Of a stretch of DNA of 7,478 bases, positions 1 to 7,478 are shown one piece after another (within the stretch, counting starts at the first letter, position 1; every line of letters begins with the position of its first letter). Source of the DNA: a virus (Duplodnaviria; Heunggongvirae; Uroviricota; Caudoviricetes). Location: positions 1 through 7,478 of IMG/VR virus record IMGVR_UViG_2623620492_000002, one strand, 5' to 3'. Below the pieces are notes generated by a model. The model had not been told where the DNA came from. It was given only the letters and a program-made list of their open reading frames with translations, and searched no databases. Position numbers and translations under genes: made by a program.

Positions 1-727
1 TAATCTGTCTGACAATATCCTTGTGCCTGTACAGTTCCCGCAGCGCCGCGCAGACTCGCTCCCACTTCCGGACATGATTTTTCGCCCGACGCAGTTCGCG
101 GTTTGCCATATGCAGTGATGGTAAAACCAGGTCATCAGCTCGCGTTTCAGTAAACGATGGCAGCGAATGCACAATGTCCGCCACAGTTTCTGTTTTAATA
201 TCTTCCTGTGTTGCAGCCTCCTGTACTGGTAACGCAACACATGCAGGTTGAGGAAAGGCTTTACCATCAGTTTCCGCTACCGATGCAGCTTTCGGCTCTG
301 CTGGTAAATTATCGCCCGGCATGCAGTAACGAAATTTACCGTTCTGATTAACGCGAATCAGACGACCTTTACTGATTGCCATTGCCAGCGTTGAAGCCAC
401 TTTGCGTGATGTGGTGCCGAAAAACGTAGCCAGTTCATCCGCCGTTTGTGGTCCGCGTTGTTCAATCGTCGCGGTTAAATCGCACTCTGAGATTTTCGCT
501 ACTGTCGCCGTGGTGGTTTCTTCCGGCTGTTCTTCTGGCGCTGGCTGTTCCTGCTGAACGTTGTTATCAGCCACACGCCAGGTGTATACGCTTTTATCAA
601 CGAAGCCAGCCTTTTTCAGTTCCCACAGCTCGTTCAGTACTTCTTCACGACTGATATCAAGTCGCGCAGCCAGCTCTACCGACGTGGCTTTTCCCATCGC
701 TTTCAGTGCGTCAAAAACAGTCTCCAT
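1..727 (-). CDS. Partial CDS (3' end lies left of the window; at least 242 codons): prophage early-operon protein with a winged-helix-like N-terminus, function unknown
   Basis: Absent from the ORF track because there is no stop inside the window. ATG at 727-725 (minus) is preceded by GGGAGG with a 6-nt spacer. Translation begins [43 protein letters not shown] and stays open to position 2. It sits 32 bp downstream of the P-like gene on the same strand. Confidence 0.55.
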
Positions 728-759
728 AAATTTCCTCCCGGTAAAAATTACTTCTCAAC

Positions 760-1425
760 TCAAACAAACCCAGCCGCTTTCCGGCGTTCATATTCCTGTT
801 TCAGTAACTCAATTGGCGTTGGCCCCGACGGGCGTTTGGGTGCCGCCAGTTGTCGCCGGACTGGCGGAACGCTCAGGCCGTTACTAACATGCTTTGCCCA
901 TTTCGTCAGCTGCCGTTCTGCAAGCCGTTTTAATTCCCCTTCGGTCATCTGGCGCTCAATCCCCTTTGAACGCATCTCGAGGCAAATGTGATACAGCACA
1001 GGCTGAGACCACGGGTACTTATCACTTCCGTCGTATCGCCAGGACTCATTGCGCCAGCGGCGGTACTCCTCCATCACAGCATCCACCGTCAGACCAAATG
1101 GATTTGCCCCACTCTCCGACATCAGCGCCACAAACTCAGCCAGGTCCGGAGGCCATGTTTCACCCGCCCGGCAGCGGTCCATGCACTGGCGGCAGACCAG
1201 CCGGATTTGCTGCTCAGTCATCACGCCAATCTGTGCAATCCAGAGCTTCGAAGGTGCGGCCCCGTTCTTCTGGGTCCAGCGGTTCGAATAAGCCTCCCCC
1301 ATGAGTTCCCACAGCTTCCACGCCGTTTCCGTCGCTGATAAATCCGTTTTCACGTTCCCACTGCTCACGTGCTGCCCGAATTTCCTGAACTGACCGTGAT
1401 GCGGTGCCACCTGGTGCGGCTGCAT
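760..1425 (-). CDS. Lambda P-type replication protein (DnaB helicase-loader homolog), 221 aa
   Basis: ORF track 760..1425. The C-terminal half ([59 protein letters not shown]) matches my recollection of the lambda P C-terminal region (ESYPWKSNAHYWLVTNLYQNMRANALTDAELRRKAADELV...). ATG at 1425 has an SD-like AAGGGGGTGA about 5 nt upstream. An alternative internal start at ATG 1221 (154 aa) lies just after the O-like stop. Confidence 0.65.
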
Positions 1426-2338
1426 GGCTCACCCCCTTGCTGACTGGTTTAACCTGCGCCCTGACGTGATTTACGTGACGGGCGAATTTCTGCTCCCACT
1501 GAACCTGCGTGAACACTTTGCCCTCCGCTGCCCAGTAGTCCCGGAAGGCGGCAAGTTCAGCTGGTGTAAATTCCGGCTCAGGAAGAGCCACGCCCCACAG
1601 CGCAGCCCGTCGTCGAAAATCCGGCGACGGATGCCAGCCATCGGTCATCGGAAATTTCCCGATGGGTTCGCTCAGGCCTTCCAGGTAATCAGGTTCCGCT
1701 GTCTGCAACGGCACGCCATTTGCCTCACTGGCCGGAGCACCCTCGCGCACGCGCGCGTTATGTGTGGGGTTTATATATCTGTTATCTGTTATCTGGATAC
1801 CGCATGACAAAGCGTTAGCCTTATCCTTAGGCTTATCCTCAGGCAAAGGGATTGCCTTATCGAATGCCATCCCCAAAGCCTCAGAAACCCCGTAGGACGC
1901 GGCTCTCAGCGATTCCCTGGCCTCCCATTTGAGAGGGCAATCAGGAATTAAAGCGAATGCCTTTGCCCAGGATTTAATGACATTTATCGAGTTTGGCGGA
2001 TTGTGTTTCGCAGCATTCGGGAGCCAAAAAACTCTGGCTTTGATATCTGCTTTCACCATGCCAAGATTCATGGCTTCGCCTAAGGCTAAGTCAAAGGCTT
2101 CGATATCCCACCCCAACTCTTCAGCCATTGCTGCCCGCCCGGCTTTAAACAACCCAGGAATAATCCCGGTAAATGGACTGGTCAGCAGATAAATAAACAA
2201 ACTCTGTCCACTTGGAGGCAGAGGAGATAACGCCCTAAATTTGGGATCATCCCATATCGTTATTTTTACCTTGCGATAAGGCTCATTGTTTGCCTTAGTT
2301 TTTGGCATGGGATTTGGCATGTTTTTAGCCTTAACCAT
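1214..2338 (-). CDS. Replication initiator in the lambda O position with a DnaT-like C-terminal region; 374 aa from ATG 2338
   Basis: Track ORF 1214..2392 actually begins at a TTG (forward CAA at 2390-2392). The first ATG with a plausible SD (GAGG, 5-nt spacer) is at 2338 ([13 protein letters not shown]...). It lies directly upstream of the P-like gene, is O-sized, and has a Trp/Phe-rich C-terminal segment ([36 protein letters not shown]) reminiscent of DnaT-like domains of phage replication proteins. The last 70 codons overlap the P-like ORF in another frame. Confidence 0.6.
1769..1862. other. Candidate replication origin inside the O-like gene: AT-rich tract plus iteron-like direct repeats
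   Basis: AT-rich GTTTATATATCTGTTATCTGTTATCTGGATA (1769-1799) contains ATCTGTT/ATCTGTT/ATCTGGA tandem 7-mers (1777-1797). Adjacent repeats are TTAGCCTTATCC (1815-1826), TTAGGCTTATCC (1827-1838) and TTGCCTTATCG (1852-1862), plus the inverted repeat GGCAA-AGGGA-TTGCC (1842-1856). The cluster encodes the Pro/Lys-rich linker ([11 protein letters not shown]) of the O-like protein, as the lambda ori does in O. Confidence 0.35.
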
Positions 2339-2349
2339 AATTGCCTCAT

Positions 2350-2378
2350 CTGGTGTCGAACCTTCCTCCGGATATAAT
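2350..2378 (+). promoter_or_regulatory. Putative sigma70 promoter for the opposite-strand 151-aa ORF
   Basis: Perfect -10 hexamer TATAAT at 2373-2378; only a weak -35 candidate (TGGTGT/CTGGTG around 2350-2356). Sits 40 bp upstream of the ATG at 2418, which has a strong SD. Confidence 0.35.
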
Positions 2379-2417
2379 CTGTGATTCCCCAATCAACAGA
2401 ACCAAAGGAGGTTCGAC

Positions 2418-2873
2418 ATGTCTTTAATGGCTGTTTGCCAAAAAATTAAAAATCACATGCGCACTGTGTACAAAATTAACCAGCACGACCACGACATGGT
2501 TAACCTGGTAACATGCAGGGCTATAGTTCTCACCCGCTTCCACCTGATTCTTACAAATCACTCACGGGATTCTCTCCTGAGCCCCAGTAGCTATGATTCG
2601 CTGGCGAGATTGCTATACCAGGCAAGTGAAAAACGTATTACTGATCCCTTATCTGTTTCCCCTGTCCTTGCTCTTCACATTCTGGAAGACGCTCTCTATG
2701 ACCCCCGTCAGGAATGCGACTATCAATTTCTTGAAGCTGAGAAATCAATGAGAGAATGGTTCGTTGAATATCGCGAACGGCAGCAAAAGTTACCCTCAGA
2801 GTATTCAGAACTTCCGCAACTTCGCTGGAGTGACCTTCCGAACGAATTATTTGCTCTGACCCCAGAAAATTAA
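2418..2873 (+). CDS. Hypothetical protein, 151 aa, opposite-strand moron candidate; no recognisable family
   Basis: ORF track 2418..2873. ATG at 2418 is preceded by AGGAGG (2406-2411) with a 6-nt spacer. The 5' half is AT-richer than its neighbours and carries several rare codons (AGG, ATA, CGG, AGA, CTA). No minus-strand ORF covers 2339-2637. Product begins MSLMAVCQKIKNHMRTVYKINQHDHDMVNLVTCRAIVL. Confidence 0.5.
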   Translation: MSLMAVCQKIKNHMRTVYKINQHDHDMVNLVTCRAIVLTRFHLILTNHSRDSLLSPSSYDSLARLLYQASEKRITDPLSVSPVLALHILEDALYDPRQECDYQFLEAEKSMREWFVEYRERQQKLPSEYSELPQLRWSDLPNELFALTPEN

Positions 2874-3051
2874 TTCTTGGGGATAAATCGTCCATAACTG
2901 AGCGCAGGCTAAGTTCTGCGCTCTGAAGCTTCCGAACCGAAGTTTCTGTACCCCAACCCGCAATTTCTGCATTTTTTGCAAGTTTCAGGATCCAGTCTCG
3001 TAGTTCGCCGGGAGTAAGATTTCCGGCATTTATGTACGGTTTGATTTTCAT
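2638..3051 (-). CDS. Hypothetical protein, 137 aa; uncertain because its 3' 236 bp run antisense through the 151-aa plus-strand ORF
   Basis: ORF track 2638..3051. ATG at 3051 lies 19 bp downstream of the YdaT-like stop with only a weak SD (AGGG about 12 nt upstream). Several rare codons (GGG x3, AGG x2, ATA x2, AGA, CGA), and the 2900-2923 hairpin sits inside it. Confidence 0.3.
   Translation of the reverse strand: MKIKPYINAGNLTPGELRDWILKLAKNAEIAGWGTETSVRKLQSAELSLRSVMDDLSPRINFLGSEQIIRSEGHSSEVAEVLNTLRVTFAAVRDIQRTILSLISQLQEIDSRIPDGGHRERLPECEEQGQGKQIRDQ
2900..2923. other. GC-rich hairpin (8-bp perfect stem, 8-nt loop) 27 bp downstream of the 151-aa ORF stop
   Basis: GAGCGCAG (2900-2907), loop GCTAAGTT, CTGCGCTC (2916-2923). 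No U-tract follows on the plus strand, so it is not a canonical intrinsic terminator. Confidence 0.4.
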
Positions 3052-3070
3052 TATTGGATACCCTATTCAA

Positions 3071-3493
3071 TCAATGCACTACAACAGAATCGTCGGACGC
3101 TCCACCACCGCCGAAATGCGCTTTACGGTAAACGGCCTGGACTGCGTCATCATGCGCATCAATTGCCGTACTCAACGCTTCCTGCGCCGCCAGTAATGCA
3201 CGGCGTTCCAGGGTATCGAAGATGCAGAGTCGGTGACGCAGCTCCCGCGGAAGGATTGCCAGAATTGCTGGGATCAGCTTCTGAATTTTTTCCCTTTGCG
3301 CTTCCGTTTCACCTTTTAACCAACGGCGATAGATGTTCTGCTGATTGTTCCAGTCCTTGCCTGGTGTCAGAGACAATTCACCTCCCCCCTGGCGCAGATA
3401 TTCTTCAGTAATTGCGTTAGCGACCCACGCCTGCCCTTTTTCGGCTGCCAGGGCTAACAGCACTGATTCGATGTGCTCATGCCTGATTTTCAT
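3071..3493 (-). CDS. YdaT-like protein (CII functional-analog class of Rac-type prophages), 140 aa
   Basis: ORF track 3071..3493. ATG at 3493 is preceded by AGGAG with a 7-nt spacer and overlaps the Cro-like stop by 17 bp. Size and position directly after the Cro-like gene match YdaT; the assignment rests on position and size, not a verified alignment. Confidence 0.6.
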   Translation of the reverse strand: MKIRHEHIESVLLALAAEKGQAWVANAITEEYLRQGGGELSLTPGKDWNNQQNIYRRWLKGETEAQREKIQKLIPAILAILPRELRHRLCIFDTLERRALLAAQEALSTAIDAHDDAVQAVYRKAHFGGGGASDDSVVVH

Positions 3494-3752
3494 GAATCAA
3501 CTCCTGTGTATTTTGTGTGTTAGCCTTACATCCAACAGGTAAACCGTCGGTTGGATTCGGGTAGATATCAGGCCGGAGTTCATGAGGTGTAACCTCGAAA
3601 TTCGTAGCCTCTGCGATACGCAATACCTTTTCGGGGCTTAACTGACTACGGCCAGTAGCTACGAGGCTAATCATCGATTGCGAACAACCAGCCAGAGCGG
3701 CCAAACAAGACTGTCGTACACGATTTTTTTTCAAATATTCATCTAATGTCAT
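3477..3752 (-). CDS. Cro-like HTH regulator (YdaS/Cro class), 91 aa from ATG 3752
   Basis: Track ORF 3477..3791, but the ATG at 3752 has an SD (AAGGTGA, 5-nt spacer) while the ATG at 3791 has none. HTH-like segment QSCLAALAGCSQSMISLVATGRSQLSPEKVLRIAEAT. Divergent from the repressor gene. Confidence 0.65.
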   Translation of the reverse strand: MTLDEYLKKNRVRQSCLAALAGCSQSMISLVATGRSQLSPEKVLRIAEATNFEVTPHELRPDIYPNPTDGLPVGCKANTQNTQELIHENQA

Positions 3753-3780
3753 AAGGGTCACCTTAGTAATGCTCGCCAAA

Positions 3781-3809
3781 ATATTAACCATACTAATTTA
3801 AATGATCAA
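3781..3809 (-). promoter_or_regulatory. PR-like promoter for the cro-like operon (minus strand): -35 TTGATC, 17-bp spacer, -10 TAATAT
   Basis: Read on the minus strand: TTGATC (forward GATCAA 3804-3809), 17 nt, TAATAT (forward ATATTA 3781-3786). Predicted start near 3773 gives a leader of about 21 nt carrying the cro SD. The -35 is embedded in TGATCAATA, a motif also found at the PL-like promoter. Confidence 0.45.
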
Positions 3810-3822
3810 TACTTATATCAGT

Positions 3823-3850
3823 TTGAGATTATGAGCTGTGTTCATAAGAT
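3823..3850 (+). promoter_or_regulatory. PRM-like promoter for the repressor gene, predicting a leaderless mRNA
   Basis: -35 TTGAGA (3823-3828), 16-bp spacer, -10 TAAGAT (3845-3850); a start 7 nt downstream coincides with the A of ATG 3857. The repressor ATG has no properly spaced SD. Confidence 0.35.
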
Positions 3851-3856
3851 GGTGGT

Positions 3857-4321
3857 ATGAGAAGAAAACGCGAAGAAATCGCATCGCCAGAAGCTACGCA
3901 GCGTCTACGCGGAATCTGGGATGCAAAAAAAAGAGAGCTCAAACTGACTCAGGAGCTTGCTGCCGAGCTAATGGGCTTTGAGACACAATCTACGGTTAGC
4001 CACTATCTCAACGGAAAGGCTCCACTTAACACTGATGCGGCATTAAAATTCGCAGTATTGCTAAGAGTTAAGCCTGAAGACTTGAGGCCTGATTTAGCTG
4101 ATCTGATGAATTACGTCCGTTCCTCTGGAACTTATGACGAAAGTTTCGAAGGCGAAGGGTGGCGGATGGTTAACAAGCAACAAGCTGATTTACTGGATCT
4201 TTTTGATATCCTCCCCGAATCAGAAAAAGCAAAACTAATCGAAAGGCTTAAAGGCCAGAATGAACTCTACAAAGAAGCGTTTGAAAATATGCTGGCAGCT
4301 CAGAAACGCATGAAGAAATAG
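3857..4321 (+). CDS. Prophage repressor, cI/RacR-like XRE-family HTH protein, 154 aa, no S24 peptidase domain
   Basis: ORF track 3857..4321. HTH motif LTQELAAELMGFETQSTVSHYLNG. Divergent from the Cro-like gene and followed by an intrinsic terminator. No Ala-Gly/Ser...Lys autocleavage module is visible in the C-terminal half. Confidence 0.75.
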   Translation: MRRKREEIASPEATQRLRGIWDAKKRELKLTQELAAELMGFETQSTVSHYLNGKAPLNTDAALKFAVLLRVKPEDLRPDLADLMNYVRSSGTYDESFEGEGWRMVNKQQADLLDLFDILPESEKAKLIERLKGQNELYKEAFENMLAAQKRMKK

Positions 4322-4343
4322 CTCCCACTACCTCGTAACTAAA

Positions 4344-4366
4344 CCGCCATCCCTGGCGGTTTTTTT
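4344..4366 (+). terminator. Rho-independent terminator after the repressor gene
   Basis: CCGCCA (4344-4349), loop TCCC, TGGCGG (4354-4359), then a T7 run (4360-4366). AAA upstream could make it partly bidirectional. Confidence 0.65.
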
Positions 4367-4462
4367 ATCCCCTCCGCCCCCATCACCTTACTTTTTTATC
4401 AAAAAAAACACTAAAATTTTCATTAGGATAGTACATTTTTATCAATAAAATGCATATTTGTG

Positions 4463-4491
4463 TTGATCATCAATATGAATATAACTAATAT
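4463..4491 (+). promoter_or_regulatory. PL-like promoter for the rightward early operon: -35 TTGATC, 17-bp spacer, -10 TAATAT, overlapping a TTGAT-C-ATCAA dyad
   Basis: TTGATC at 4463-4468 and TAATAT at 4486-4491, the same hexamers and spacing as the PR-like promoter. The inverted repeat TTGATCATCAA (4463-4473) and further ATCAATA copies (4441-4447, 4469-4475) are candidate operator half-sites. Confidence 0.45.
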
Positions 4492-4557
4492 TATTACAGA
4501 AGCAGCACGGCGCTGTAGGTTTTAGTTCCGCCACCCGGCGTTAAGGGGAGAGATAAG

Positions 4558-4692
4558 ATGGTACATTACGAAGTAGTTCAGTATTTGATGGATTGTTGCG
4601 GTATCACTTACAGCCAAGCTGTACAGGCTCTACGCAGCAACGACTGGGATCTCTGGCAGGCAGAAGCCTCTATCCGCAACAACAAAATGTGA
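4558..4692 (+). CDS. Small protein, 44 aa, first gene of the PL-like operon (YdaG/YdfB size class)
   Basis: Absent from the ORF track (too short). ATG 4558 is preceded by AAGGGGAG with a 7-nt spacer; stop TGA 4690-4692. Product MVHYEVVQYLMDCCGITYSQAVQALRSNDWDLWQAEASIRNNKM. The track ORF 4593..4784 in another frame is probably spurious. Confidence 0.5.
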   Translation: MVHYEVVQYLMDCCGITYSQAVQALRSNDWDLWQAEASIRNNKM

Positions 4693-4702
4693 GGTGCGAA
4701 AA

Positions 4703-4855
4703 ATGCAAAAAATCGACCTCGGCAACAACGAATCCCTGGTGTGTGGCGTGTTCCCCAACCAGGATGGAACGTTCACCGCCATGACTTATACCAAAAGCAA
4801 GACATTCAAAACTGAAACGGGCGCACGTCGCTGGCTTGCCAGAAATACTTGCTAA
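4703..4855 (+). CDS. Small protein, 50 aa (YdaF/YdfC size class)
   Basis: Absent from the ORF track. ATG 4703 is preceded by GAGGTG with a 6-nt spacer, 10 nt after the previous stop (translationally coupled). Product MQKIDLGNNESLVCGVFPNQDGTFTAMTYTKSKTFKTETGARRWLARNTC; stop TAA 4853-4855. Confidence 0.5.
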   Translation: MQKIDLGNNESLVCGVFPNQDGTFTAMTYTKSKTFKTETGARRWLARNTC

Positions 4856-5044
4856 TCCATTATTTGGATTAATTCAATATTCTCGCTGTAGGGGTATAGC
4901 CGAGGCCACCAAAGCCCGGAGGTGGTGAAATAAAACCGGGCACAACACGAAGGCGCATTTCCGATATCCATAAAGAGTCGGTCTTGTCTGTTAAATTTAA
5001 ATGGTGGGAGTGCGCCTCCGGTTGTGAATAACAACACTGCTGTG

Positions 5045-5100
5045 TGTAGTCTTGGCGGCATCAGTTTTTTCTTGAAGTTCGACTGATGTCCGCCCTTTTT
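5045..5100 (+). ncRNA. dicF: DicF-like small RNA ending in an intrinsic terminator
   Basis: TTGGCGGCATCAGTTTT ... CTGATGTCCGCCCTTTTT: GGCGGCATCAG (5054-5064) pairs with CTGATG-T-CCGCC (5083-5094), followed by C plus T5 (5095-5100). The stem and T-tail match my recollection of E. coli DicF (GGCGGUAUCAGUUUU...GCCGCCCUUUUU). It lies in a 412-bp stretch with no credible ORF, between the small ORFs and the kil-like gene, as dicF does in Qin. The 5' end is not determinable from sequence. Confidence 0.5.
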
Positions 5101-5279
5101 AAAGTGAATTTTGTGATGCGGTGAATGCGGCTAAGCGCACGCGGAACAGTTAAAAAGCTATTGTCCTTCGTAGCAGAGTTATGGGTGAAATATCCGGCGT
5201 TAATTGTTAACTGGTTAACGTCACCTGGAGGCACCAGGCACCGCATCGACAAAATTCATTTGTAAAAATGGAGATAATT

Positions 5280-5501
5280 ATGATTGCTCATCACTTCGGA
5301 ACTGATGAAATACCACGTCAGTGTGTGACCCCTGGCGATTATGTTCTTCATGAAGGTCGGACATATATCGCCTCGGCAAACAATATTAAAAAGCGAAAAC
5401 TTTATATTCGTAACCTGACCACAAAAACATGCATTACTGACTGCATGATTAAAGTCTTCCTCGGTCGTGATGGTTTACCTGTAAAGGCGGAGTCATGGTG
5501 A
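5280..5501 (+). CDS. KilR-like small protein, 73 aa (candidate cell-division inhibitor); assigned by size and position
   Basis: Track ORF 5268..5501, but GGAGA at 5270-5274 gives a 5-nt spacer to ATG 5280, while ATG 5268 has no SD. Product [73 protein letters not shown]. Sits where Rac carries kilR, between the small ORFs and racC-recE. Confidence 0.55.
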
Positions 5502-5671
5502 TGACTAAGAAAATAAAATGTGCTTACCACCTTTGCAATAAAGAAATTGAAGAAAGCAAAAGTATTAAAAGACCACTTCATTTCATGCGTGGAGTTATCC
5601 CAACGACGGAAATGAAAAAATATTGTAGTGAAAGTTGTGCCGAAAAAGACCAGATGGCACACGAACTTTAA
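5495..5671 (+). CDS. Small Cys-rich protein, 58 aa, possible zinc ribbon (YdaE-like position)
   Basis: Absent from the ORF track. ATG 5495 (or 5501) overlaps the previous stop in ATGGTGATGA. Product [58 protein letters not shown], with C-x4-C and C-x3-C pairs. The antisense track ORF 5402..5662 is probably spurious. Confidence 0.5.
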
Positions 5672-5745
5672 TTAACTGACTATGCGAAACTGAATTTATG
5701 CCAGCAATGGCAGGGATTCGCTCAACCTTAATTAAGGAGAAAAAC

Positions 5746-6021
5746 ATGATTACCAGTTATGAAGCCACTGTTGTAACTACTGATGACATTGTTCACGAGG
5801 TTAATCTGGAAGGAAAGCGTATTGGCTACGTGATTAAAACAGAAAATAAAGAAACCCCATTCACTGTGGTTGATATCGACGGCCCATCAGGCAACGTAAA
5901 AACACTTGATGAAGGTGTCACAAAAATGAGCCTGGTTCACATCGGAAAGAATCTGCCCGCAGAAAAAAAAGCCGGATTTCTGGCAACTCTGATTGCAATG
6001 AAATTAAAAGGTGAAATCTGA
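5746..6021 (+). CDS. Small protein, 91 aa, RacC-like by size and position
   Basis: Track ORF 5698..6021, but AAGGAG at 5734-5739 gives a 6-nt spacer to ATG 5746 (MITSYEATVVTTDDIVHEVNLEGKRIGYVIK...). Immediately upstream of the recE-like gene. Confidence 0.6.
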   Translation: MITSYEATVVTTDDIVHEVNLEGKRIGYVIKTENKETPFTVVDIDGPSGNVKTLDEGVTKMSLVHIGKNLPAEKKAGFLATLIAMKLKGEI

Positions 6022-6030
6022 AAAAAGAAA

Positions 6031-6049
6031 GCCTGCATAACGTGCAGGC
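6031..6049. other. Perfect 7-bp stem hairpin between the RacC-like and RecE-like genes; looks like a minus-strand terminator
   Basis: GCCTGCA (6031-6037), loop TAACG, TGCAGGC (6043-6049). The plus strand has an A-tract upstream (AAAAAAGAAA 6021-6030) and no U-tract downstream, so the U-tract follows the hairpin only on the minus strand. Confidence 0.4.
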
Positions 6050-6119
6050 CTGAGTGAAGAACCTGGGACATTTATTCATCACTCGCAGTAATTTTAATCT
6101 GAGTTGAGGTTAAAAAACA

Positions 6120-7478
6120 ATGAGCACAAAACCACTCTTCCTGTTACGAAAAGCGAAAAAATCATCCGGTGAACCTGACGTCGTCCTGTGGGCAAGTGAC
6201 GATTTTGAATCGACCTGTGCCACTCTGGACTATCTGCTCGTTAAGTCAGGTAAAAAACTGAGCAACTATTTTAAAGCTGTTGCCACAAATTTTCCTGTTG
6301 TTAATGACCTTCCCCCTGAAGGTGAGATCGATTTTACCTGGAGTGAACGCTATCAACTCAGCAAAGACTCCATGACATGGGAACTAAAACCGGGAGCAGC
6401 GCCAGACGACGTTCACCACCAGGATAATGCTCAAGAAACCAAAGAACTGGCGGGAGGCCAGGAAGAAAACGCGCAGGCAGACGCCCACGAGGATTGCCAG
6501 GATTGCGAAGTCTCTGTAGCCACTTTGCGGTTCACACAGCGTCTTCTGCACATTTTTACGTATGCGGCCGGGGATCGGAAATACCTGCATCATGCCACCC
6601 GAGAACAACGCGAACACATTACTGCTCTTGAGATGGATCAGGAAAACAGCTATGTCCAGAATCTGCTGTTGGCCATACGCAGCATGGCAGAACCGACAAC
6701 TCTGGATAATGCCGCCCTGCTCCGCTTGACTGATGCAATTAAGGCAGTTTTCTCTATCACTAAAAAACATCAGCCCTATGAATTTAAGAATTTCATTTCA
6801 GCCTGGCTGGATACCGAACACATTGATCGCGGTCTTCTGACAAAAGAATGGCGAAAAGGGAATCGTGTTTCACGCATCACTCGCACGGCTTCCGGTGCTA
6901 ATGCTGGCGGCGGGAACCTCACAGATCGCGGCGAAGGTTTCGTCCACGATCTGACGTCACTGGCGCGCGATGTAGCCACTGGCGTACTGGCCCGTTCAAT
7001 GGACGTGGACATCTATAACCTTCATCCGGCACACGCTAAACGCATTGAGGAAATTATCGCTGAAAATAAACCACCCTTTTCTGTTTTCCGCGACAAATTC
7101 ATCACCATGCCTGGCGGGCTGGATTATTCCCGCGCCATCGTGGTTGCGTCCGTGAAAGAAGCACCAATTGGGATCGAGGTCATCCCCGCACACGTCACTG
7201 AATATCTGAACAAAGTACTGACTGAAACCGATCATGCCAACCCTGATCCGGAAATCGTGGATATTGCCTGCGGTCGCTCCTCGGCCCCGATGCCGCAGCG
7301 AGTAACAGAAGAAGGAAAACAGGACGATGAAGAAAAACCACAACCATCTGGCGCAATGGCAGATGAACAGGCAACGGCTGAAACAGTGGAACCGAATGCA
7401 ACTGCAAAATGGCATCTGAATCGATCGCAGTTTGGCATTCGAATCGATCATGATTTGGCATCCATCTCCGATCACAGT
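6120..7478 (+). CDS. recE: Exodeoxyribonuclease VIII (RecE-like), N-terminal 453 codons; CDS continues beyond the window
   Basis: Absent from the ORF track (no stop in window). ATG 6120, open in frame to 7478. N-terminus [96 protein letters not shown] and the later block [48 protein letters not shown] match my recollection of Rac RecE. All minus-strand track ORFs inside it are antisense artefacts. Confidence 0.8.

Follow-up and report, generated by a model that had tools for sequence, protein, structure and literature searches.

The DNA analysed here (the window, 7,478 nucleotides (nt), positions 1 to 7,478 of IMG/VR virus record IMGVR_UViG_2623620492_000002) is the immunity and early-left arm of a Rac-type Escherichia coli prophage, and our subject is the spacer between its small genes ydaF and kilR, which carries a hairpin-forming RNA element. 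The 412-bp stretch downstream of ydaF occurs with 100% identity in three complete genomes (e.g., strain C5). RefSeq coordinates of this identical locus were converted to window positions by an offset of -1145, and the gene order there is a racR-like repressor, a gene for 44 amino acids (aa), ydaF, an unannotated gap and kilR, followed by ydaE, a racC-like gene, recE, recT, ralR, xisR and intR; the RefSeq records with 100% identical DNA contain no annotated feature between ydaF and kilR. The explanation that best accounts for the spacer as a whole, to which we assign a probability of roughly 0.6, is that it encodes an orthologue of the small RNA (sRNA) KilS, a paralogue of DicF with a csgD seed of the RprA/McaS type and a terminator acting in cis, followed by a kilR leader of the STnc100 type. 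The features concerned are these:

4703-4855, plus strand: ydaF (DUF1391), small gene directly preceding the spacer (RefSeq; Pfam DUF1391, E = 3.6e-29).
4989-4997, plus strand: putative extended -10 promoter TGnTAAATT, read from the sequence, its hexamer ending 7 nt before 5004.
5004-5100, plus strand: KilS orthologue of 97 nt, from the equivalent of the transcription start site (TSS) to the end of the U-tail (K-12 kilS, b4833).
5035-5050, plus strand: proposed seed CACUGCUGUGUGUAGU (csgD complementarity, identity with RprA and McaS, alignment of variants).
5054-5100, plus strand: DicF-type intrinsic terminator, with stem 5054-5094, a C and U5 at 5096-5100 (fold and covariance model).
5097-5287, plus strand: kilR leader, a diverged structured module of the STnc100 type (Rfam RF02076, 81-sequence alignment, nhmmer).
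5127-5143 and 5224-5238, plus strand: P2 hairpin and CCUGG-AGGCA-CCAGG hairpin of the leader, which also contains GGUGAAU.
5104-5123, plus strand: 5' strand of the closing helix, in duplex with 5239-5259.
5239-5259, plus strand: closing helix, 3' strand; its end lies 10 nt upstream of the GGAG (5270-5273) of kilR.
5280-5501, plus strand: kilR, FtsZ inhibitor protein of 73 aa (RefSeq; 97% identity with K-12 KilR).

In Rac of K-12, the MG1655 record places a non-coding RNA gene between sieB and kilR: kilS (b4833; 1418405-1418502, minus strand). Window positions 5004-5100 align over the whole of this mapped 98-nt transcript with five substitutions and one indel (a loop U), or ~94% identity, and they too lie upstream of kilR; sequence orthology and synteny thus identify the hairpin element as the orthologue of KilS, an already-described sRNA of Rac-type prophages. 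On a larger scale, 4881-5709 is 91% identical to K-12 Rac by blastn, with near identity beginning at 4881. Published work on K-12 describes KilS as a 98-nt RNA, predicted from Hfq RNA interaction by ligation and sequencing (RIL-seq) and verified by Northern blot, with its TSS at 1418502, an RNase E site at 1418471 (nt 32) and yncL as a reproducible RIL-seq partner (Bar et al. 2021, PMC8175672, in which DicF is named 0 times).

The K-12 TSS is equivalent to window position 5004, and the 20 nt upstream are identical to those in K-12; in diverged KilS-like variants the -10 is retained as TAGATT. A simple promoter scan returned a single site (4836-4863), which is within chance expectation, and it missed the extended -10 because no -35 is present. 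At the other end, the hairpin 5054-5094 folds with -19.5 kcal/mol (z = -4.6; 0 of 200 shuffles fold as well), so the stem and T-tail that a sequence-only reading of this DNA had claimed at 5045-5100 are real. KilS-type DNA is present in 413 of 5426 complete E. coli genomes (~8%), where, among the matches listed, KilS is unannotated in the RefSeq carriers; phage genomes in the databases carry it too, for example Rac-SA53 and an Stx1c phage. At the locus of O157:H7 strain F3113 (L002, 6429-7277), a Rha-family regulator gene is inserted between the KilS/leader region and kilR, and IS1203 interrupts recE and ydaU.

The relation of KilS to DicF was examined with the Rfam covariance model (RF00039, gathering score 48 bits), which matches 5041-5095 (plus strand) at 42.8 bits and E = 6.4e-7 for the whole window; canonical K-12 DicF scores 76.7 bits and K-12 KilS 39.1. 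In gathering mode the whole window gives no Rfam match, and DicF and STnc100 surface only in E-value mode. The covariance search proposed by the sequence-only reading reveals kinship to DicF, but at a score under the curated cutoff. When the window is aligned with both K-12 Rac and K-12 Qin, the GGCGG/CCGCC stem base and the U-tail prove common to all three, and the region from the terminator to the downstream start codon (kilR or dicB) is common to Rac and Qin, whereas the 5' flank, the upper stem and the loop differ between KilS and DicF. DicF uses its 5' end to pair with xylR and pykA and its 3' region to pair with ftsZ (PMC5069750). Since the parts that differ are precisely these two target-binding parts, both are replaced in KilS; the xylR/pykA seed UUUCUGGUGACG is missing, and ACUGCUGUGUGUAGUC stands in its place in the window. 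From the alignment, KilS is thus best described as a paralogue of DicF and not as a DicF. An earlier assignment of this element as a DicF-like sRNA gene was right about an sRNA and about a relative of DicF, but it is neither DicF itself nor a new feature, as K-12 has kilS.

Among the sequences scanned, at least seven variants of the TTGGCGG...CCGCCCTTTTT hairpin were found (L124 at 4612-4661, minus strand; also L145, L205, L149 and L229). The one in L124 joins a DicF 5' flank to a non-DicF loop (43.5 bits), a combination that suggests modular exchange of seed and loop. Faubladier and Bouché in 1994 and Conter et al. in 1996 reportedly described dicF-related sequences in other prophages.

The single-stranded segment 5035-5050, directly 5' of the terminator hairpin, is complementary to csgD mRNA at -98..-83 in 16 of 16 contiguous Watson-Crick pairs, a run for which 0 of 2000 shuffles exceeded 12 nt. 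This stretch of csgD is the common distal 5' untranslated region site of other sRNAs, including the validated CAGC at -87..-90, with conservation of 99% or more in 5193 of 5426 genomes. K-12 KilS has a 13-nt Watson-Crick run, or 16 if one G-U pair is counted; the U to C difference at 5037 turns this G-U into G-C and makes the window 16-mer perfect. Within the segment, UGCUGUGU is unchanged in all eight KilS-like variants, whose loops differ. The first base of the 16-mer (5035) coincides with the position equivalent to the K-12 RNase E site (nt 32), and in a processed KilS of ~66 nt the seed would accordingly form the 5' end. Of the predicted duplexes of KilS with yncL, the best uses the same seed, against the yncL 3' region (-22.6 kcal/mol; 17 of 500 shuffles as good).

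A weak match to the Rfam RprA family (RF00034; 25.4 bits, E = 1.1), well under the cutoff of 70 and hence no sign of family membership, led us to compare KilS with RprA, and a 14-nt complement found in a control region proved to be the antisense of mcaS. The sequence UGCUGUGUGUA is invariant in RprA, McaS and KilS. For RprA, the csgD site in question is site Ib, where pairing was proven by compensatory mutations in CAGC (-87..-90), and processed RprA60-105 alone represses csgD (Mika et al. 2012, PMC3465796). According to Andreassen et al. 2018 (PMC6061853), McaS and RprA share one sRNA site on csgD mRNA. Of the McaS sites, only the distal one, McaS Binding Site 1, which lies a long way 5' of the start codon, is needed in vivo; once McaS is bound, RNase E cuts the csgD message over 30 nt farther upstream. 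As the seed is the very sequence that RprA and McaS use on csgD, pairing with csgD is the most likely trans function of KilS, and we put forward a csgD-targeting role as a new, testable prediction.

K-12 mcaS (L249, 1659-1752, minus strand) was also compared with window 5035-5062, where McaS ...GUAGAGUCUGGCGGAUGUC... resembles KilS ...GUAGUCUUGGCGGCAUC...; the McaS and KilS/DicF terminators may have a deeper common ancestry, or the resemblance may be due to chance. Northern probe 2 for KilS, AGGACTACACACAGCAATGTCGTTATTTAC (supplementary file 3 of PMC8175672), includes the 16-nt complement that KilS has in common with RprA, as well as 11 nt in common with McaS, and from these sequences its cross-hybridisation is conceivable.

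Beyond the terminator, the RNA leading into kilR (5097-5287, plus strand) matches the STnc100 model at 40.8 bits and E = 2.4e-6, under the gathering score of 47, while the leaders of Qin and other Rac/Qin-type loci score 30-38 bits. Covariation was assessed in an alignment of 81 sequences filtered to <80% identity, the window sequence included. Its cells are paired in 96.1% of cases vs 82.6% in shuffles and 34-50% with slid partners, and 216 cells carry double changes vs 63 in shuffles. Helices P1 and P2 and the CCNGG-AGGCA-CCNGG hairpin of STnc100 are all present with covariation, P1 having been partly selected by the extraction. An nhmmer profile of the 81 modules finds the kilR leader with E = 3.7e-19, a partly self-matching value as the window is one row of it.

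The most conserved STnc100 element, CACCNGGAGGCACCNGGCAC (window 5222-5241), was used for scans of genomes and viral sequences, in which the loci carrying it were labelled L006-L245. Among the matches listed, it is spread over the Enterobacterales, in Escherichia, Salmonella, Citrobacter, Enterobacter, Klebsiella, Kosakonia, Pantoea, Erwinia and Rahnella, and also occurs in viral contigs, with a few high-GC matches attributable to chance; in many copies helix P1 is immediately preceded by a near-consensus promoter, and an intrinsic terminator follows shortly, and some loci hold two or three copies a few hundred bp apart (L079 at 225/811/1379, L136 at 2331/2998/3253 and L045 at 3539/3759). The STnc100-type structured RNA is very widespread. 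In Shigella flexneri (L032, 3236-3424), a leader with a variant hairpin loop is followed by isrK (61.5 bits) and a C4 antisense RNA (75.7 bits), each of which clears its Rfam cutoff; the arrangement resembles that of P1 immI, with C4 RNA before icd and ant.

The closing helix of the kilR leader comprises 20 bp with one bulge (-27.7 kcal/mol), a length that is characteristic of the Rac/Qin-type subgroup. Compensatory changes in it were seen in L007, L020, L090, L218 and L070 (e.g., GCAGGUUUUAAGGUGUGGUG / CACCACACCUUAAAGCCUGC in L020), and cognate flanks pair with a mean of -23.8 kcal/mol vs -14.0 for non-cognate ones. DicF exists in forms of 53 nt and 72 nt, and the 3' end of the latter is made by RNase III (PMC5069750). 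The window equivalent of this published end is 5114/5115, within the 5' strand of the helix, and the closing helix 5104-5123/5239-5259 is thus probably an RNase III site in Rac as well.

At least nine loci (L010 in E. coli, L126, L128, L141, L143, L169, L174, L197 and L230) carry an STnc100-type module, then 10 nt, then AUGCUGUGUGUAGUCUUGGCGGUACCAG...CUGGUACCGCUCUUUUU. The latter equals the KilS seed plus a terminator of the DicF/KilS type, and such loci indicate that the seed-plus-terminator unit also serves as the 3' tail of a free-standing sRNA.

Taken together, these observations lead us to the following model. Transcription of KilS would start within the ydaF-kilR spacer, at a weak extended -10 promoter belonging to KilS itself, and stop at 5100, and RNase E would trim the RNA to a ~66-nt form starting with the seed. 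The seed would pair in an Hfq-dependent manner with csgD, plus other seed targets such as yncL, and pairing with csgD would bring about RNase E cleavage of the csgD mRNA, by analogy with McaS and RprA. In cis, the terminator would halt most transcription before kilR, and RNA that reads through would fold into the STnc100-type leader closed by the 20-bp helix, which RNase III would cut to split the sRNA from the kilR message.

The sequence-only reading had instead proposed a DicF-like antisense RNA that represses ftsZ translation, so that the arm would carry one RNA and one protein inhibitor of cell division. The DicF covariance match speaks for this, as do the genomic position, which equals that of dicF before dicB, and a U-rich loop that is partly complementary to the ftsZ Shine-Dalgarno sequence. 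When the known DicF-ftsZ duplex is recovered (DicF 24-53 with ftsZ -29..-2, -27.9 kcal/mol), however, the homologous KilS segment pairs with -17.0 kcal/mol in the window, 11 kcal/mol weaker, and with -22.8 in K-12 KilS; the anti-Shine-Dalgarno CUCCG, the core of the anti-ftsZ sequence, is missing from KilS, and the window loop is one U shorter, which breaks the register. The complementarity of the loop and 3' region to the ftsZ initiation region that this proposal depended on is therefore lacking in the form DicF has it. Furthermore, a comparison of eight KilS-like RNAs taken from both genomes and phages shows the loop to be the most variable part, different in almost every lineage, and the 5' stretch to be invariant, which argues against a conserved ftsZ antisense in the loop; ftsZ is also not named among the KilS partners in the available part of PMC8175672, and the DicF score stays under the Rfam cutoff. 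Whole-molecule and sliding-window duplex energies with shuffles gave no discrimination even for DicF-ftsZ (11 of 40 as good) and were abandoned, and homologous segments were compared directly instead. An ftsZ-repressing RNA is, on balance, very unlikely here. A small protein encoded in the spacer is more improbable still: three open reading frames (ORFs) do exist (69 aa, 4852-5061, minus strand; 63 aa, 5061-5252, minus strand; 46 aa, 5125-5265, plus strand), and the 69-aa ORF is largely open in K-12 Rac too, but none has a Pfam match above threshold, two of the three carry stops or frameshifts in their counterparts from K-12 Rac and Qin, and in the third the differences between window and K-12 mostly change the amino acid (translations compared by eye). 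RefSeq annotates no gene there among the matches listed, and RNA features with covariation account for the whole region; coding potential of these ORFs was accordingly rejected.

A more substantial alternative, which we nevertheless consider unlikely, is that the element is purely a cis-acting attenuator silencing kilR and that the short RNA is a by-product without trans targets. The strong terminator in the kilR 5' region fits this well, and kilR is toxic and kept off; its toxicity is tied to nusG repression in a study of OxyS, which cites Rho/NusG silencing of prophage genes (PMC5793797). The few RIL-seq chimeras and low sRNA score of KilS (PMC8175672) and the placement of a KilS unit in the N-dependent left operon of the lambdoid Stx1c phage point the same way. 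But a terminator alone leaves unexplained an invariant single-stranded stretch of 8-16 nt across variants with variable loops, its identity to the csgD-binding sequence of two host sRNAs, and the TSS of its own and the recovery by Hfq RIL-seq that are reported for K-12 (PMC8175672). A cis role of the terminator and a trans role of the seed are, in any case, mutually compatible. Several points do weigh against KilS as a csgD regulator. In the literature searched, we found no experiment linking KilS and csgD, no paper noting their complementarity and none naming both; three papers that name RprA together with KilS appeared unrelated, judging from title and abstract. PMC8175672 gives yncL as the only reproducible RIL-seq partner, with few chimeras, and a KilS sRNA score of just 0.03-0.15; with such a score, cellular KilS levels may be too low to matter. 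The targets compared were csgD and dgcM alone, picked as RprA targets and not from the transcriptome, and dgcM (ydaM) pairs weakly (-14.6 kcal/mol) through the seed alone with no help from the flanks. In the fold of full-length KilS, part of the seed is paired with the KilS 5' end, so that activity may depend on processing. Generic duplex-energy tests are powerless for the known DicF-ftsZ pair, which makes all energy comparisons no more than indicative, and the helix P1 statistics of the leader are inflated by the choice of 5' anchors by complementarity, P2 and the CCNGG/CCNGG hairpin being unselected.

The gene boundaries at both ends of the spacer, and the DNA upstream of KilS, add the following features:

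4558-4692, plus strand: ydaG-like ORF of 44 aa.
4835-4880, no strand: junction without sieB (blastn against K-12 Rac, tblastn with SieB).
4906-4940, plus strand: paired segments (sequence; fold test), nearly identical in K-12 Rac.

In RefSeq and in K-12, kilR starts at 5280 and not at the ATG at 5268, with GGAG (5270-5273) as its Shine-Dalgarno sequence, so the spacer is 4856-5279 (424 bp). The 412-bp stretch 4856-5267 that had been called non-coding is indeed so, but it ends too early. The two ATGs are in frame and the upstream one overlaps the GGAG used by 5280; mechanical ORF calling lengthens kilR by four codons too many. The ydaG-like ORF matches Pfam UBA_4 (UBA-like) with 23.4 bits vs a cutoff of 21.8 (E = 5e-5).

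By blastn, the 46 bp at 4835-4880 stand in place of 554 bp of K-12 Rac that include sieB, and tblastn with K-12 SieB against the window found no match and no SieB remnant, which agrees with the absence of a SieB-like ORF observed from the sequence alone. This sieB-less junction is found in 167 of 5426 complete E. coli genomes. The statement that K-12 Rac carries sieB at this position was likewise correct, but the implied replacement of sieB by the RNA element was not: K-12 Rac has sieB and KilS side by side, and KilS is therefore no substitute for sieB. A 7-bp inverted repeat (TAATCCA 4853-4859 / TGGATTA 4866-4872) lies at the junction across the ydaF stop codon; it gives a weak, chance-level match to CRISPR-DR17 (E = 2.7) and may be a scar of cassette exchange.

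Further along, CCACC (4906-4910) / GGTGG (4921-4925) and CCCGG (4915-4919) / CCGGG (4936-4940) can be drawn as an H-type pseudoknot, a drawing that is unsupported, as the fold is on a par with that of shuffled sequences (z = -0.45; 66 of 200 as good). These pairs are thus present as described earlier, but a role in a processed precursor was rejected given that they lie outside the mapped KilS transcript, upstream of its start at 5004, and fold at chance level. A decayed second STnc100 module in 4880-5030 was also considered and dropped, being undetected by Rfam and by the nhmmer profile of the 81 modules.

In itself, the element is nothing unusual: a copy, left unannotated, of an sRNA already known from the literature. 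To this our analysis adds a csgD seed of the RprA/McaS type and a picture of how the leader is built. The seed, a perfect 16-mer in the window, gives the function-less sRNA KilS a precise, testable hypothesis. If it is true, the Rac-type prophage would plug straight into the curli/biofilm switch of its host, and KilS would be the eighth sRNA acting on csgD and the first that is horizontally acquired. Loss of Rac is reported to alter early biofilm formation (abstract of PMC4632033), an effect on which the csgD seed may bear. That RNase III processes DicF has long been known, and the 20-bp closing helix could be the structural reason for it; the kilR/dicB leader becomes a member of a widespread class of structured RNAs, STnc100. 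That KilS and DicF, as paralogues, differ exactly in their target-binding parts implies that prophage sRNAs can switch targets while the scaffold is kept. More tentatively, and with somewhat less than even odds in our estimate, KilS-type RNAs could be prophage copies of the RprA/McaS csgD seed, with DicF, KilS and at least five further variants of loop or seed representing interchangeable seed-plus-terminator cassettes beside an STnc100-type RNA. Such cassettes would then sit either after an STnc100-type RNA, as the tail of an sRNA, or before the RNase III-processed leader of a small toxic gene.

Compared with known systems, the locus is closest to kilS of K-12, which it follows in locus, strand, position upstream of kilR, promoter region, terminator and downstream leader. 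The differences are the sieB cassette that flanks KilS in K-12 and is missing from the window, the one U fewer in the loop and the five substitutions. With the sRNAs STnc100/PasD, the kilR leader has in common GGUGAAU, the P2 hairpin, the CACCNGGAGGCACCNGGCACC element and the closing helix. Those RNAs, however, are free-standing, with a promoter and terminator of their own, whereas here the module is a 5' leader placed after a terminator and before a coding gene, its closing helix is lengthened to 20 bp and its score is below the cutoff.

DicF, like KilS, is an Hfq-type sRNA with a GGCGG...CCGCC hairpin and a U-tail, and the stem base of the window aligns with that of DicF. The context is also alike, since each has a DUF1391 gene of the repressor-proximal operon before it and, after it, a structured leader with a small gene for a division inhibitor; in the window, ydaF, RNA, leader and kilR stand in an order parallel to ydfA-ydfB-ydfC, dicF, leader and dicB in Qin. 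On the other hand, the DicF 5' seed for xylR/pykA (UUUCUGGUGACG) is replaced by UGCUGUGUGUAGUC in KilS, other sequence stands in place of the ftsZ-pairing loop and 3' stem, and KilS has its own TSS (K-12; PMC8175672), whereas the 5' end of DicF arises by an RNase E cut of the operon transcript (PMC5069750).

McaS and window KilS share CACUGCUGUGUGUA (14 nt); the remainder of McaS is unrelated to KilS in the alignment, and McaS has further published activities. RprA is core and Rcs-controlled while KilS is prophage-borne and without the rpoS-activating 5' domain of RprA, and beyond the 16-nt seed and a few flanking bases KilS is unmatched, with a different terminator. Yet the two RNAs carry the identical 16 nt UGCUGUGUGUAGUCUU, in both cases directly before the terminator hairpin. 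In RprA this 16-mer is the anti-site Ib for csgD and also part of the ydaM (dgcM) pairing region, and a KilS processed by RNase E would begin at its seed, in keeping with the architecture of RprA60-105.

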